In this document: piece by piece, positions 1-64,000 of the stretch
Layout: every line of letters starts with the position of its first letter
How positions within the stretch are numbered: position 1 is the first letter of the stretch
Assembly (NCBI GenBank): GCA_965240465.1
Contig: OZ251219.1
Location: 1,535,139-1,599,138, forward strand
DNA from: a bacterium
Lineage (GTDB): Bacteria; SAR324; JACQKK01
Direction of reading: 5' to 3'
DNA length: 64,000 nt
Position numbers: made by a program

Positions 1-3000
1 GACGACGGTTTAGTACTACCACCCAAGGTAGCTCCACTCCAAGTGGTCATTGTTCCGATTGCCAAAACCGAAGCCGAAATAAAAAAAGTCATGCCAATCG
101 CAGAAAAAATCGCTGCCAACCTTCAGGAAAACTTTGAGCCACATCGCATCAAACTAGACCAAAATTTCGATGACCGACCCGCAGAACGCTTCTTCCACTG
201 GATACAGCAAGGAGTACCACTAAGAATAGAAATAGGATCTCGCGACATCGCCCAAGAGCAAGCCATCCTGGTCAGGCGTGATAACAGAGAAAAAATTACG
301 ACCTCCTTTTCTTCTTTGACACAACAAGTCCAGCAAACCATGGAGAAAATCCAACTAAACCTGCTACAAAATGCCCAAAAATTTCAACATCAGCATTCAT
401 ATCAGGTAGATTCCCTCCCCCAATTTCAACAGCAAATTGAACAAGGAGGATTCTGCTACGCTCACTGGGATAACACCACAAAATCCGAACAAAGGCTCAA
501 ATCCTTAGCTAAGGCTACTCTTCGCTACATCCCTTTTAAGCCTTCCGACCTGCCACCACATATCAGCCCAGAACCCGGTAAATGCATTGTTAGCGGCCAG
601 CCATCTAAGCAGCGAGTATTGTTTTCTCAGGCTTACTGAGGTTAAATTATCACCGCCCCCGATGGTGATAGGTTGAAAAAATTTGGGAGTATCAGTATGG
701 CACCTCAAGGTTATCGGGCTTTGGATGTAGAGGGGGTCAGGGCTTATGGTGCCGATGCCGATGCGATTAGCAATATTTTGGGCGGGGATGCTCCCGACTG
801 GCAAATAAGAGAGGTGGGAGATGGCAACTTAAACTTGGTCTTTGTGCTGAAAGGAACCAGCGGTGCTTGTGTGGTAAAGCAAGCCCTGCCATATATGCGA
901 GTAATCGGGGAAAGCTGGCCTTTGTCGTTGGAGCGTAATCGGTTTGAGTATCATTGCTTGGTTCGCCATGCTCGCTGTGTGCCTACTCTAATTCCTAGTT
1001 TGTATCATCATGATGAGACGATGGCATTGATGGCTATGGAATATCTAACGCCGCATATCATCTTGCGGAAAGAATTAATCGCTGGACAGCAATTTCCACT
1101 GGTAGCAGAACATATGGCAGAATATATGTCCCAGACCTTGTTCAAAACATCTGACCTATATTTGAAGCCAGAAAAAAGGCGAAAAGATCTGCGTTTGTTC
1201 TCGGAAAACAACCAACTATGTGAAATTACCGAAAATGTGGTTTTCACTGACCCCTATCTTGACTCTGAGATGAATCGTTGGACTAGTCCTCAGCTGGATA
1301 AGCTGGTAGCAGAGTTTCGGGCTGATAAAAAATTGAAGCAAGCCTCCCAAGAGTTAAAATTCAAATTTGCCACCGCGGCTGAATCTCTGTTGCATGGCGA
1401 CCTACACTCAGGCTCTGTTATGGTCACCGAACAGGAAACTAAGGTGATTGATCCTGAATTCGCATTTTATGGTCCAATGGGTTTTGATGTGGGAGCCTTA
1501 CAAGCTAATTGGTTGCTGGCTTATTTTTCTCAGCCTGGACACGAACAAAAAGCTCGGGAAAGGGAGCAGTACCAAAGTTGGATACTGCAACAAGTGCGGG
1601 ATACATGGCGTCTGTTTGCCGAGAAATTTAGCAGGCTCTGGCAAGAGGAACGCTGTGGAACGGCATTTAGTCGCTCGCTGTTGAAACAGGATACTGAGGC
1701 ACTAGATTGCTTCCTACAAAGGCTACACCAAGATGCGATTGGATTCGCTGGGGCTAAGATGGTGCGGCGTCTGATAGGAGTGGCACATGTAGAGGATATG
1801 GAAGCGATTGAAAACCCAGACCTACGTGCCAAATGTGAAGAAAAAGCCTTGCAGCTGGGTCGTCTGCTGATGCTGGAAAGAGCCAGCGACTTCCAAGAAG
1901 TCTGCCAGTTAGCCCAAAACTTAGAGAGGCGGGACTTGGGGAGGCGAGACTTGGGGGCTTGACTTGGGGGCTTGACTTGGGGGCTTGACTTGGGGGCTTG
2001 ACTTGGAGAGGCGGGACTTGGGGGCTTGACTTGGGGGCTTGACTTGGAGAGGCGGGACTTGGGGGCTTTCCAGTTAAGGAGGAACTTTCCCGTTAAGGAT
2101 GCCTGCAACATCTGGCTTATTTGGCGGTGAGGATGCTAATACGTTCTGGATGAGAAGGTTGGGACTTGGGGGCTTTCCAGTTAAGGAGGAACTTTCCCGT
2201 TAAGGATGCCTGCAACATCTGGCTTATTTGGCGGTGAGGATGCTAATACGTTCTGGATGAGAAGGTTGGGAGTTGGGATCATCGGGGGGGGATGGAGCTG
2301 CGGGGGCTGGGGGGGCTGGGGAGGGAATTGCGAGGGCGGGGGTGGAGGGAATTGCGAAGGCGGGGGTGGAGGGAATTGCGAAGGCGGGGGTGGAGGGAAT
2401 TGCGAAGGCGGGGGTGGGGGATTTTGATTGGACGGAATTATTAGGGGATTTGGATGTTGGGCGGGAAGTTCGTGGTTCTGCCAAGAGGTTTTTGAAAGCG
2501 ATGTTGCGTTCGGTGAGGAAGTCGGTAAGTTGTTTGAGGACGAGGATATTGTCTTGAGGGAATTTTCTACCACTGATTTCAAATTTTGCTGGTGAGGGCA
2601 GGGCTTTTAGGGCTATGAGCAGGGATTTTTCTTGGGTTTTCAGTTGCTGAGGGGTAAGTTGGCGAGCTGTTTGATGTTCCTTGATGACGGACTGAAACAC
2701 GACTTTTAGGAGTGCCTCTTGTTTGAGCATGTCTTTTAGGAATAGGTGTTGGAGGAAGCGGAGGTACTCGGTGGCAGTATGTTGGGGGATGGCTAGCTTA
2801 ATGGCTAGTGGTTCTCCAGTGCGGATACCCAGGATGATGAGGGGTAATTGTTCTCCTCCGATCGCCGACGAGATGAATTGATGACTGCTATGAAGAAAGT
2901 GCAACAACGCGGTAAGAGGCTGAGTATTTAGGGGAGCGGGCGGTTCGGGGTAATAGCGGATTTCCAGTGTTTGGGTGTTTTTGGGGAGGGGGGGAGAAGC

Positions 3001-63000: not shown

Positions 63001-64000
63001 AGGGCTATGCACTGGGAGCGGAGTCTCACCTATCCTAAATCCCGCCTCATCACCTAAAAAACCTAGCCCCGAACTAATATTCTGCTCTCTCAACCTCCTA
63101 GAAACATTGGAAAACAACATCCATGCCAACCCTCCTAACGCCAGCAAAGTCGCTAACTGATAACCCCACCCCCATAAACGCTCATTGTATCCCCCCCCCA
63201 GCGTAAATTATTAAATCTGTCTCGCTGCTTCAAGCTAACCTCACACAAAAAAACCCGCCTCATCAACTGGAACCAGAGACGAGGCAGGTTAAACGCCTAG
63301 ACCGATCATCCTGCCCATTCTAACAGAATAAGCAAGTCAAACGCCTACTAGGCCGCTTTGCCCATTCTAACGAATAGGAGGGGCATACAACAATCCGCCC
63401 TTGCTCGCCAACTGATTGAGACCACGCTCCAAGCGTAAAGGAGTTTTTGGTCCTAAATTACGCTCAAAAATCTCACCATAATTGCCAGACTTAGCAATCG
63501 CTCTGACCGCCCAGTCTTGTGGCAAACCAGCATCCGGACCAAATGAACCAGTCTTACCTAACATACGCTGCACTTCAGGATCTTTTGAAGAACGAGCTAT
63601 CTTACTGACATTCCTACGGGTAATACCCTTTTCCTCAGCGATAATGGTGGCATTCAATACCCAGCGAACAATGTCACCAAACTGTTGATCGCCTTGTGCT
63701 ATTGCAGGACCTAAAGGCTCTTTGGAAATAATATCTGATAAAATTACGTACGCTTTTGGATCCTTAAAAACAGAATGCTGTCCCGCTAAAATAGAAACAT
63801 CGGCAGTATAGGCATCACAACGACCAGCTTCAAAAGTAATCGCGGCATCATCTGTACGTTCCAACACTACGGACTTGTACTTCAAACTGTTGGTACGGAA
63901 ATAATCAGATAAATTAAGCTCCGAAGTAGTTCCAGCATTAACACAAACAGTGGCTCCGTTTAAGTCTTTCGCACTCTTTACGCCACTCTTACGACGAACC

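Follow-up and report, generated by a model that had tools for sequence, protein, structure and literature searches.

Young tandem repeats are abundant in the bacterial genome described here (G000, a single contig of 1,599,138 bp), and their density, together with the silent-site GC content (GC3) of the repeat-masked sequence, is mirror-symmetric about the independently located replication origin, in this genome as well as in that of its sister species (G001, covered whole at 1,724,560 bp). We hold with considerable confidence that this reflects a mutational landscape which depends on the distance from the origin. The arrays are probably formed in dependence on their position along the replication arm and then filtered by selection, with the complementarity of the two species as a by-product, and a cause in the fork or in replication timing specifically is put forward only tentatively.

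Data and methods

Tandem repeats were called with TRF (parameters 2 5 7 80 10 50 500), and repeat-rich and repeat-poor zones were delimited by an HMM. The sole basis is the standing sequence of two genomes with 5-8 domains each. The window is the whole stretch of 64,000 nucleotides that was analysed; its first position lies on the long arm, about 929 kb from the origin, and its last on the short arm at about 607 kb, with the terminus in between. Its features are collected in Table 1.

Table 1. Repeat arrays and other features of the 64-kb window, in window positions unless marked as contig
Feature	Position	Strand	Context
Terminus-proximal repeat-rich zone	1..64000		HMM rich segment at contig 1,520,000-1,590,000
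Arrays of 13, 41, 67, 107 and 24 bp	1919..2421		Fill the convergent spacer between methylthioribose kinase (673..1962, +) and ORF 2224..3471 (-); the first begins within the kinase gene's last 44 bp
25-bp unit x 6.1, 96% matches	13429..13581		Spacer of ORFs 12222..13115 and 13615..14601
13-bp unit x 5.8	17759..17833		Divergent spacer, ORFs 16426..17550 (-) and 17892..18662 (+)
Complex G-rich array, periods 21, 27 and 54 bp (all divisible by 3)	25399..26153	+	Within the N-terminal half of ORF 25287..27488; this ORF is Rsm22-like in its C-terminal part
Replication terminus by composition	26500..28500		Cumulative GC-skew maximum at contig 1,562,156 (window 27,018), with skew sign change; the G-rich array at 25.4-26.2 kb may displace its exact point
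93-bp protein-coding repeat	30983..31231	-	Inside GLUG/TSP3 surface-type protein (30185..32815); a paralogous long-period family, in a class apart from the short arrays
Poly-C tract, about 22 nt	32694..32715
Three unrelated arrays: 15 bp x 5.1, 13 bp x 3.2, 20 bp x 3.5	34786..35115		One divergent spacer, GLUG-motif protein gene (32862..34781, -) and hutH (35110.., +)
12-bp unit x 12.1	36652..36794	+	Starts at the TAG stop of histidine ammonia-lyase (hutH; ORF 35110..36654), so that each unit holds a stop-derived triplet
Probable single-base assembly error	38217
14-bp unit x 22.6	40274..40595	+	Fills the spacer (atpH-atpA) of ATP synthase delta (39712..40257) and alpha (40625..42151); unit is a copy of the delta gene's last codons, its TAA stop and two more bases
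Poly-C tract, C x 15	44764-44778
Two arrays: 11 bp x 4.9, 15 bp x 4.1	46098..46245		Immediately before the called start of ATP synthase beta (46212..47627) and extending over it
Two arrays: 14/28/56-bp family; perfect 14 bp x 4.9	51474..51821		Divergent spacer, CHASE2-cyclase gene (49162..51441, -) and ORF 51852..52496 (+)
19-bp array (11-bp sub-period)	52558..52648		Spacer of ORFs 51852..52496 and 52724..53899
15-bp unit x 4.9, 96% matches	54577..54649	+	In frame in succinyl-CoA ligase alpha (SucD; 53902..54843), a housekeeping enzyme; repeated 5-residue insert

Abundance and form of the repeats

In G000 the 1000 TRF rows were merged into 645 loci, or 4.03 per 10 kb over the whole contig. The controls, 80 loci from a range of bacteria with 1,422,789 bp in total, gave 117 repeat loci (0.82 per 10 kb), and an order-3 Markov genome gave 2 rows. 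The excess is thus about 5-fold genome-wide and about 7-fold in the rich zones; the bloom reported in the initial annotation is real, and the 11-fold excess given there was too high. The window holds 34 loci with a score of at least 50 (5.3 per 10 kb, 3,848 bp covered), none of them beyond position 54,649, and 108 rows at score 30.

The units are mostly unrelated and 12-16 bp long, as had been claimed: in the pooled set of both species 904 of 1098 have no similar partner, the remainder being paralogous protein repeats and one 15-bp family in G001, and 349 of the 645 periods in G000 lie between 12 and 16 bp. The median match within an array is 91% in G000, reaching at least 95% in 221 of the 645 loci, and there is no bias to base A (fraction 0.259 in arrays, 0.273 in the genome). 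G001 carries 453 loci, likewise in domains, so that what had been said of the sister species from 58% of its genome holds for the whole. The outgroup genus (G008) has 2.18 loci per 10 kb over 820 kb, only 40% of them with periods of 9-30 bp, and samples of G009 hold 30 loci in 220 kb.

Repeat domains and silent-site GC

GC3 is reportedly structured along prokaryotic chromosomes (Daubin and Perriere, 2003). The repeat counts of G000 in 20-kb bins have a variance/mean ratio of 4.1 and a lag-1 autocorrelation of 0.68; the corresponding values in G008 are 1.36 and 0.24, and its repeats show no domains. Between the rich and poor HMM zones the contrast is about 6-7-fold, 5.8 loci per 10 kb against 0.8-1.1, a count that is partly circular since the zone classes were drawn from the repeat data. 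GC3 is also higher in the rich zones of G000 (0.445, against 0.405 in the poor ones), in agreement with the initial annotation. Repeat density and GC3 are coupled, the correlation of repeat-masked GC3 with density being rho 0.66 in G000 (54 bins) and 0.83 in G001. GC3 in G001 is 0.546-0.558 in the rich zones and 0.445-0.469 in the poor ones; along the arm it has its minimum of 0.44 at the origin and rises to 0.55-0.58 in mid-arm.

Two-copy duplications outside the called loci are 3.3 and 2.4 times denser in the rich zones, and repeats of 1-7 bp are not enriched there. The arrays of the poor zones are equally pure but shorter (2.5-2.7 copies, against 3.2-3.7 in rich zones). Long G/C homopolymers co-localise with the repeat-rich zones genome-wide.

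The zone borders are gradual, with transitions spanning 50-150 kb, which fits a gradient and not imported blocks. The contrast between the zones in GC3 and repeat load does look like that between DNAs of different origin, and a probable single-base error of the assembly is present at least once in G000 (window 38217); even so, it is extremely unlikely that the zones come from large introgressions, from chimeric assembly of two co-occurring genomes or from arrays made by sequencing error. Imported or chimeric blocks would have sharp borders and would not lie mirror-symmetrically about dnaA and the skew minimum in two genomes. The species, at a median amino-acid identity of 64%, lie too far apart for an assembler to have crossed between them, identity to the sister is equal across the four classes of orthologue state (62.3-64.8%), and the frame rule described below is a signature of selection and not of error. 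Contigs of two runs, which are probably from the source sample and not independent, agree with the unique flanks at every base and are interrupted at the arrays, which is how k-mer assemblies behave at real repeats.

Position of the repeats relative to genes

A crude ORF model places 338 of 372 intragenic loci of G000 at periods divisible by 3, whereas the 197 spacer loci are spread 55/73/69 by period mod 3; in G001, by the same kind of model, the intragenic count is 198 of 244. The in-frame rule of the initial annotation is thereby upheld, and purifying selection does act as a filter on the arrays. The further rule, that arrays lie just after stop codons, is not specific: rich-zone spacers of all types are occupied alike (40%, 31%, 34% and 41%, crude gene model), and 84 of the 645 arrays abut a stop. 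Convergent spacers carry arrays in 48 of 117 cases under the crude gene model, and not in 58 of 75 as previously counted. The coding fraction of G000 is about 0.90. The median spacer in the rich zones measures 102 bp raw and 78 bp after repeat masking, no longer than the masked 87-95 bp found elsewhere.

The domains are the same for intragenic and for spacer repeats (rho 0.61 and 0.79), and orthologues are rich in one species and poor in the other; what counts is therefore position and not gene identity. To this extent the earlier attribution to chromosomal territory and not to genes is sustained, and the territory can be specified further as distance from the origin on both arms.

The same observations bear on a selected function, by which the arrays would serve as regulatory RNAs, spacers, terminators or disordered inserts and the zones would mark where these are wanted. 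The available part of a report on the similar Borg bloom proposes roles in regulatory RNA and disordered regions (PMC9879509), and some arrays here do lie in operon spacers such as atpH-atpA. The units are, however, unrelated, occupation does not differ among the spacer types, genes and spacers that bear arrays in one species lack them at the orthologous place in the other, the zones track origin distance and not gene content, and housekeeping enzymes such as SucD also take inserts, so we give this explanation very little credence.

Mirror symmetry about the origin

The origin of G000 was located by dnaA (605,074-606,393) and by the cumulative GC-skew minimum at 607,845, and that of G001 by dnaA (24,138-25,457) and the minimum at 1,716,537. 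For repeat density in G000, 605-610 kb comes out best among 320 mirror axes (r=0.79 when distances of at most 600 kb are mirrored), and over the full half-circle the origin ranks 3 of 320. In G001 the best axis is 1,695 kb (r=0.93, distances up to 400 kb) and the origin ranks 6 of 345, a rank that drops to only 48-60 of 345 once distances beyond 400 kb count as well; three values of the largest mirrored distance were tried, so these ranks do not form one pre-planned test. Arm against arm in 50-kb bins, repeat density gives a Pearson correlation of 0.86 in G000 (13 bins) and 0.61 in G001 (17 bins). Repeat-masked GC3, an independent variable, has the same symmetry: its best mirror axis lies at 605 kb in G000 and at 1,710 kb in G001, where the arms correlate at rho 0.46 (p=0.06).

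The HMM borders are paired about the origin, at -326/+383 and -581/+538 kb in G000 and at -247/+287 kb in G001. Going outwards from the origin, G000 has a rich zone at 0-330 kb, a poor one at about 350-550 kb and rich sequence further out; in G001 the first zone, at 0-250 kb, is poor and the next, from 250 to 550/750 kb, rich. The symmetry is imperfect, as the rich zone of G001 has different ends on the two arms (about 547 and about 752 kb), and the long arm of G000 has an extra poor/rich pair with no counterpart.

Apparent complementarity of the sister species

Orthologues keep their distance from the origin (Spearman 0.936) because rearrangements in the genus are symmetric about the origin-terminus axis; 44% of them lie on the same arm in both species. 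Their GC3 values are nearly uncorrelated between the species (rho 0.08, n=933), as had been noted. Their repeat densities are anticorrelated, at rho -0.41, -0.47 and -0.54 for windows of +-10, 20 and 40 kb, and the observed value is reached by 6.4% of all 343 circular shifts and by none of those above 150 kb; the sign of the initial estimate thus stands, and its size (-0.64 and -0.82) does not. Among the 933 orthologues the HMM states in the two species are rich/poor in 416, poor/rich in 243, rich/rich in 140 and poor/poor in 134. With fewer than 4 loci per 40 kb as the threshold, 27 are poor in both, so the statement that no gene is poor in both is incorrect by either count.

Such figures could be read as a true reciprocal rule, whereby a block rich in one species is for that reason poor in the other and an exclusive heritable chromosomal state is partitioned between the two lineages; the anticorrelation, the failure of any shift above 150 kb to reach it and the excess of opposite states all speak for it. 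Mirroring either species' map about the origin, however, keeps the anticorrelation (-0.42 and -0.55). Once the component predicted from the mirror arm is subtracted, the correlation between the species is 0.012, and the density of the sister adds only 0.02 of R2 to the mirror predictor. As the complementarity is gone with the mirror component, it consists of two origin-centred waves of opposite phase and not of a reciprocal rule. The 6.4% of shifts and the 274 of 933 orthologues in the same state point the same way, and with two species and a handful of domains the opposite phase is a single observation. The rule is largely refuted by the mirror subtraction and has very little probability left; of the complementarity first described, the anticorrelation remains and the exclusive rule falls.

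Proposed mechanism

We favour one mutational process for all short arrays, in which short segments, mostly of 9-30 bp, would be duplicated in tandem and would then grow by replication slippage or sister-template switching. Its intensity would be set by the distance from oriC, equally on both arms, and the same positional variable would move the balance of silent-site substitution or conversion towards GC. Purifying selection would sort the products, any spacer being tolerated and genes accepting only units that are a multiple of 3, and arrays seeded on the last codons and the stop codon would leave the protein unchanged. Opposite phases of the wave in G000 and G001, with origin distance conserved, would give the apparent complementarity. 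The positional variable may act via the replication programme, through fork progression or stalling, dNTP supply, sister cohesion or nucleoid structure. It is conceivable, though less than an even chance, that each species has its own map of zones at fixed distances from oriC, equal on the two arms, in which a different replication programme (fork stalling or restart, sister-template switching or cohesion) raises the birth and growth of minisatellites at least six-fold and shifts GC3 by 0.04-0.09.

The repair genes do not single out the genus. Full-length Pol I, MutS, MutL, RecJ, XseA and RecA are all present, no repair or replication gene was found that separates the genus from its relatives, and all five genomes searched have one RNR and lack NrdR. 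A translesion (Y-family) polymerase was not found in G000 or G001, an absence common to G006, G009 and five of eight genomes of the neighbouring family. Zone differences in third-position strand skew are opposite in direction in G000 and G001, giving no consistent signature of single-strand exposure.

A rival to replication errors is a recombination landscape, with more homologous or sister recombination and gene conversion at given origin distances; GC3 would be kept high by GC-biased conversion or more effective selection, and the arrays would be made and expanded by unequal exchange or by template switching associated with conversion. GC3 in the rich zones of G001 equals that of the outgroup (0.538-0.564) and is lower in the poor zones, as expected if rich zones resist AT drift. 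RecA is present, and the lack of a detected translesion polymerase makes damage avoidance by template switching plausible. Arrays with 12-16-bp units are, however, too short for RecA-dependent unequal exchange, and proteins of the rich zones are not slower-evolving as more effective selection predicts (protein branch difference against repeat-density difference, a weak rho of +0.15, n=197). In the available part of a survey of 145 species, recombination rates are roughly arm-symmetric and correlate positively with GC in 82% of species, but related species share their landscapes (PMC11879095), and the phase is opposite here. On balance we regard recombination as an unlikely cause beside the replication-linked process favoured above.

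Significance

Position-dependent mutation in bacteria is known mainly from laboratory lines, where it is modest, limited to substitutions and disputed as to its causes. The present data would seem to show the known origin-symmetric wave in a new mutation class, at much larger amplitude and in natural genomes. Minisatellites are an easily scored class, and here they have high contrast, are coupled to base composition and differ in phase between sisters. If the reading is true, this is a long-term natural imprint of the wave, far above the strength measured in the laboratory, repeat density could provide a readout of the replication programme in uncultured bacteria from sequence alone, and the species pair would offer a natural experiment to tell which factor, among timing, dNTP supply, nucleoid structure and recombination, sets the wave. 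Should the zone maps be species-specific, the opposite phase would mean that the replication programme itself evolves fast. There is also a caution for comparative genomics, as symmetric inversions preserve origin distance and traits that depend on it therefore look block-linked or complementary between species.

Comparison with known systems

The Borg elements of Methanoperedens, according to the available part of their description (PMC9879509), likewise carry hundreds of recent arrays with virtually unique units in spacers and ORFs, with units divisible by three in ORFs and unconstrained between genes, with replication slippage as the proposed cause. The Borg repeats sit on a linear archaeal element, are perfect and rich in A, and have next to no equivalent in the host genome, whereas the arrays here have a median match of 91-93% and no A bias, lie on a bacterial chromosome and occur also in G008 and G009. 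That part of the description does not mention zoning of the repeats by origin distance.

Ehrlichia ruminantium resembles G000 in its small chromosome and in having tandem repeats in non-coding DNA, which actively expand and contract and would do so in G000 too. The available part of its account puts the coding ratio at about 64%, with spacers of great length, where G000 is about 90% coding and its spacers are not lengthened, and describes neither origin-symmetric zoning nor coupling to GC3.

With the recombination landscapes, as far as the available part of PMC11879095 describes them, G000 and G001 share a silent-site GC that varies along the origin-terminus axis symmetrically on both arms. 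That part makes no link to tandem repeats, and its landscapes, conserved among relatives, as a rule peak near the origin or reach their low near the terminus, whereas the sisters here are of opposite phase and the GC3 minimum of G001 is at the origin.

The closest likeness is to base-substitution rates in mutation-accumulation lines of E. coli, Vibrio and Burkholderia (Niccum 2019; Dillon 2018), which in the available parts of PMC6606806 and PMC6106087 follow a 2- to 4-fold wave symmetric about the origin and shaped by replication timing, dNTP supply and nucleoid proteins. The wave concerns single-base changes in repair-deficient laboratory lines, and indels and repeats are not treated in the available part of PMC6606806 (no occurrence of "indels"). 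G000 and G001 are natural genomes with tandem duplication and expansion of 9-30-bp units at 6-7-fold contrast, and the substitution component is seen only as the GC3 shift of 0.04-0.09; the larger amplitude and the other mutation class count against the proposed reading. Both phenomena vary with origin distance and are mirrored on the two arms, with an origin rank of 6 of 345 in G001 for distances up to 400 kb and a poorer one at larger distances. Loss of NrdR or low temperature moved the peaks of the wave by about 200 kb (available part of PMC6606806), and such a movable position is a precedent for a phase specific to each species.

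Repeat survey and controls

Tandem repeats were called with the TRF tool, which returned 108 rows in the window at score 30; overlapping rows of score 50 were merged into one locus, giving 34 loci in the window that cover 3,848 bp (5.3 per 10 kb). Over the whole contig of the studied genome, G000 (1,599,138 bp, GC 45.4%), 1000 TRF rows were merged to 645 loci, which corresponds to a density of 4.03 per 10 kb with 6.6% of the DNA lying in arrays. Identical settings were used for three controls: 80 loci of diverse bacteria (1.42 Mb, chosen as AtpA matches in distant phyla at 60-68% identity) gave 0.82 per 10 kb, an order-3 Markov copy of G000 gave 2 rows, and 820 kb of G008, an outgroup genus of the same family, gave 2.18 per 10 kb. 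By these same-settings controls the excess is real, and its size is about 5-fold genome-wide instead of the 11-fold of the initial annotation. The whole genome of the sister species, G001 (one contig of 1,724,560 bp, GC 49.8%), shows the same phenomenon with 453 loci, again in domains.

The arrays of G008 are a repeat population distinct from that of G000 and G001. Periods of 9-30 bp make up only 40% of its loci against 83-91% in the other two. Their median period is 47 bp and 70% have at least 95% matches. The first 20 kb of each of four G008 contigs (C2-C5; L174-L177) opens with 45-bp-period arrays, and two of them also have 56-bp arrays.

The units were described as unrelated, and this was borne out for 904 of the 1098 units of both species, which lack any similar partner. 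Exceptions are the long coding repeats (87-93 bp and 144-147 bp) of paralogous GLUG-motif/thrombospondin-type-3 (GLUG/TSP3) surface proteins and a 15-bp family in G001. In the latter, 10 loci carry arrays of the same 15-bp unit, most of them spaced by about 1.6 kb (G001 contig 1,251,939-1,291,372); tandem duplication of a gene cassette probably accounts for this cluster, which departs from the rule of unrelated units. Several of the GLUG/TSP3 genes of G000 lie in lagging-strand clusters about 250-300 kb either side of the origin, where the local GC skew is reversed.

Coordinates of features in and around the window (window positions unless marked as contig)
Feature	Position	Strand	Remark
Methylthioribose kinase	673-1962	+	kept in reduced genome
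Histidine decarboxylase	8895-10007	-	kept in reduced genome
GLUG/TSP3 proteins, large paralogues	30185-34781	-	other paralogues at contig about 310-330, 692-713, 795-808 and 888-895 kb
Poly-G/C tract	32694-32715
Histidine ammonia-lyase	35110-36654	+	kept in reduced genome
Poly-G/C tract	44764-44778
14-bp x 22.6 array	atpH-atpA spacer		unit copies the last atpH codons plus TAA
12-bp x 12 array	after hutH		first unit opens with the hutH TAG
15-bp x 4.9 in-frame array	inside succinyl-CoA ligase alpha		housekeeping enzymes also struck

Placement of the arrays

The arrangement of the arrays looks like a mutational flood that has been sieved by selection. Inside called genes the period is divisible by three in 338 of 372 arrays, as the in-frame rule of the initial annotation had it, and the spacer arrays are spread about evenly over the residue classes of the period modulo 3 (55/73/69). 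In the repeat-rich zones an array is found in 31-41% of the spacers, whatever their type (divergent 49/123, convergent 48/117, co-directional 77/248 and 66/192), and in the poor zones in 5-7%. Since every spacer type of the rich zones is occupied to this extent, stop codons have no special affinity for arrays, and the idea that arrays lie just after stop codons is not upheld as a specific rule; 84 of the 645 arrays adjoin one. Units derived from the gene end, as in the atpH and hutH arrays of the table, leave the protein unaltered by downstream copies, which explains the tolerance of stop-adjoining arrays. The gene model came from a crude longest-ORF caller, so start-related counts are unreliable.

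Domains and their order about the replication origin

The repeats are clustered in large domains, as had been claimed: in 20-kb bins the variance/mean ratio is 4.1 and the lag-1 autocorrelation 0.68 in G000, with 4.8 and 0.84 in G001 and 1.36 and 0.24 in G008. A two-state HMM gave rich segments of 5.7-5.9 loci per 10 kb and poor segments of 0.8-1.1, the level of the controls, the zone classes being taken from the repeat data themselves. The domains are common to intragenic and spacer arrays (rho 0.61 and 0.79), and two-copy duplications outside called loci are 3.3 and 2.4 times denser in rich zones. Silent-site GC (GC3) also follows the domains, which agrees with the earlier description; after repeat masking it is 0.445 in rich against 0.405 in poor zones of G000 and 0.547 against 0.461 in G001, a comparison of two genomes with few independent domains in each. 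In non-overlapping 30-kb bins repeat-masked GC3 correlates with repeat density at rho 0.66 (G000) and 0.83 (G001).

For repeats of 1-7 bp a domain effect was not found. G/C homopolymers of at least 7 are 3.6 and 2.3 times denser in rich zones. Poly-G/C runs of at least 9 number 83 in G000 (the longest 18 exact), 77 of them in rich, 5 in intermediate and 1 in poor zones, and only 8 in G001; this looks like a homopolymer bloom specific to G000 and zoned like the arrays.

The key result is that the repeat domains are ordered about the replication origin. The origin was placed without use of the repeats, by dnaA and the cumulative GC-skew minimum, at 605,074-606,393 and 607,845 in G000 and at 24,138-25,457 and 1,716,537 in G001; the skew maximum, taken as the terminus in G000, is at 1,562,156 (window position 27,018), and in G001 at 925,377. 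All possible mirror axes (320 in G000, 345 in G001) were then scanned with several values of the maximum mirrored distance. For repeat density in G000 the best axis is at 605-610 kb (r=0.79, rank 0 of 320, distances up to 600 kb); the origin has rank 3 when the full half-circle is mirrored and rank 38 with distances up to 400 kb. The best axis of G001 is at 1,695 kb (r=0.93, distances up to 400 kb), and the origin as axis ranks 6 of 345 at this distance and 48-60 at larger ones. For repeat-masked GC3, a separate variable, the symmetry is highest about 605 kb (G000) and 1,710 kb (G001).

Counts of G000 loci per 50 kb along the long arm (29, 41, 35, 38, 25, 33, 21, 12, 5, 5, 9, 25, 41) and the short arm (20, 41, 24, 20, 26, 34, 21, 4, 3, 1, 3, 14, 22) agree with a Pearson coefficient of 0.86. 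By distance from the origin, G000 has a rich zone at 0-330 kb, a poor one at 350-550 kb and again a rich one farther out; in G001 the poor zone (0-250 kb) comes first and a rich one follows at 250-550/750 kb. The transitions are 50-150 kb wide and have no steps. GC3 of G001 is 0.44 at the origin and rises to 0.55-0.58 in mid-arm; beyond this it drops again to about 0.44-0.46 on the right arm, and on the left arm it dips to 0.50 for a short stretch only. The replication arms of G000 by GC skew are unequal (955,656 bp and 643,482 bp), and the part by which the long arm exceeds the short one holds an extra poor/rich zone pair.

Comparison with the sister species

The two species are only distantly related: their genomes share 933 reciprocal best hits (median amino-acid identity 64%) in 148 synteny blocks. 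The repeat densities around orthologues anticorrelate with rho -0.41, -0.47 and -0.54 at windows of +-10, 20 and 40 kb. By HMM state 416 orthologues are rich in G000 and poor in G001, 243 the reverse, 140 rich in both and 134 poor in both. The complementarity by territory that was first reported is present as an anticorrelation, weaker than the figures given for it and not exclusive, as 274 of 933 orthologues share the same state. In a circular-shift test that keeps the autocorrelation, the observed value was reached by 6.4% of 343 shifts, none of them beyond 150 kb.

The distance of orthologues from the origin is conserved between the species (Spearman 0.936) and only 44% are on the same arm; kept distance with lost arm is what inversions centred symmetrically on the origin-terminus axis usually produce. 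When the repeat map of either species is reflected about the origin the anticorrelation persists (-0.42, -0.55), and after removal of the mirror-position density the residuals have a between-species rho of 0.012. Mirror position explains 36% of the density variance of G000, sister density 20% and both together 38%. Given this residual and the conserved origin distance, the complementarity is two origin-centred waves in opposite phase viewed through that distance, and with two species the opposite phase is effectively one observation.

A reciprocal assembly chimera, the first suspicion, was rejected on the 64% median protein identity, the single contigs, the gradual borders and the origin symmetry. 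Two genomes that were assembled independently, each as a single contig, both show the origin symmetry, which argues against a chimeric or error origin; so do the frame rule and an even protein identity to the sister across the four state classes (62.3-64.8%). Two public sequencing runs, X1 and X2, come from one sample, which is probably the source, so that they are no independent check. Their contigs match exactly at the unique flanks and stop at the arrays, and a third run, X3, yielded no matching contig; one k-mer contig joint skips the hutH array (36651 to 36758), which may be a graph shortcut. At window position 38217, in or beside ORF 37836..38255, all covering contigs of both runs carry an extra A (depth 80/80 and 46.5/46.5); the deposited genome probably has a one-base assembly error here, which may split or truncate a gene call.

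Polarity and lineage

Polarity was read from 197 orthologue triples with the outgroup G008. In poor zones short-period arrays number about 0.7-0.9 per 10 kb, the same as in G008, so for repeats the rich-zone bloom is the derived state. With GC3 it is the poor zones that are furthest from the outgroup (0.53-0.56): the rich zones of G001 match it (0.546-0.558), its poor zones have fallen to 0.445-0.469, and G000 is lower throughout (rich 0.45, poor 0.36-0.41). Genomes of the relatives measure 2.3-5.2 Mb, with 51-70% GC; the genus is thus a reduced, AT-drifting lineage.

Metagenome scans gave no further member of the genus and no relative of ORF 18810..21242; for the secretin they gave two matches, one of 45% identity and another, confined to a short segment, of 31%. 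In the protein atlas the secretin falls among Pseudomonadota-type GspD clusters.

Replication and repair genes

A cause in gene content was sought through Pol I, MutS, MutL, RecJ, XseA, RecA, RNR, NrdR, HU/IHF, PolB, Y-family polymerases and DnaE, and was rejected as none of these sets the genus apart from its relatives; between G000 and G001 no difference was found except MutY. Full-length Pol I, MutS, MutL, RecJ, ExoVII (XseA) and RecA are present in both, with three HU/IHF-family genes each, and one RNR without NrdR was found in 5 of 5 genomes searched. B-family and Y-family DNA polymerases were not found in G000 or G001, which have a single DnaE each, so that by these sequence searches their polymerases would be Pol III and Pol I only; the Y-family absence is common to two other relatives (G006, G009) and to 5 of 8 neighbouring-family genomes.

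A true MutY was not found in G000: the best match to the model (contig 626580-627029) has the look of a different HhH glycosylase and reaches 59.7 bits, where the cut-off is 286.5. In G001 there is one MutY, at 301.8 bits. This difference may contribute to the lower GC of G000 (45.4% against 49.8%); it concerns GC as a whole and not the zones. None of the 13 genomes of the order that were searched (G000-G008, G013-G016) yielded a family-1 uracil-DNA glycosylase (TIGR00628).

Possible mechanism

The process behind the bloom would have to create and lengthen tandem duplications of about 9-30 bp, co-vary with a shift towards GC at silent sites and in spacers, depend on origin distance equally on both arms, change gradually along the arm, and take a different phase in the two sisters. 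Slippage or template-switching at a rate set by the local replication regime is favoured, because the nearest established phenomenon is the oriC-symmetric wave of base-substitution rates. In the parts of PMC6606806 and PMC6106087 consulted, this wave is ascribed to the timing and progress of replication, to fluctuating dNTP levels, to nucleoid proteins, and to biases of proofreading or mismatch repair, and its peaks shift by about 200 kb on ribonucleotide reductase deregulation or lower temperature. The chief competing explanation is a recombination landscape that is symmetric about the origin and is combined with GC-biased conversion (PMC11879095), which accounts well for the GC3 coupling but less well for the opposite phase, and which fits poorly with very short units.

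Other candidates were rejected. Against a general slippage defect, no zone effect was seen on homopolymer A/T runs, dinucleotide or 4-7-bp repeats. Decay of arrays through faster evolution of poor zones does not agree with poor-zone arrays that are smaller in length and equal in purity to rich-zone ones, and a protein branch test was weakly opposite. A single-strand deamination signature is opposed by third-position skews between zones that run opposite ways in the two species, and deletion pressure by repeat-masked spacers that are no shorter in poor zones. Strand skews, spacer lengths and protein rates thus gave no consistent clue to the mechanism.

Comparison with known systems

In the literature searched, which comprised main texts outside subscription journals, no link of repeat density to origin symmetry or GC3 was found. 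The classic reduced bacterial genome laden with repeats is Ehrlichia ruminantium, which has long spacers and is 64% coding (as cited in the part of PMC10710844 consulted), whereas coding is about 90% here. Closest in form to this bloom are the tandem repeats of Borg elements, which, as far as the consulted part of PMC9879509 describes them, likewise have unique units, periods divisible by three in ORFs, arrays that begin within the ends of genes, and a proposed origin by slippage; the bloom reported here differs in being without their perfection or A bias and in not being absent from relatives.
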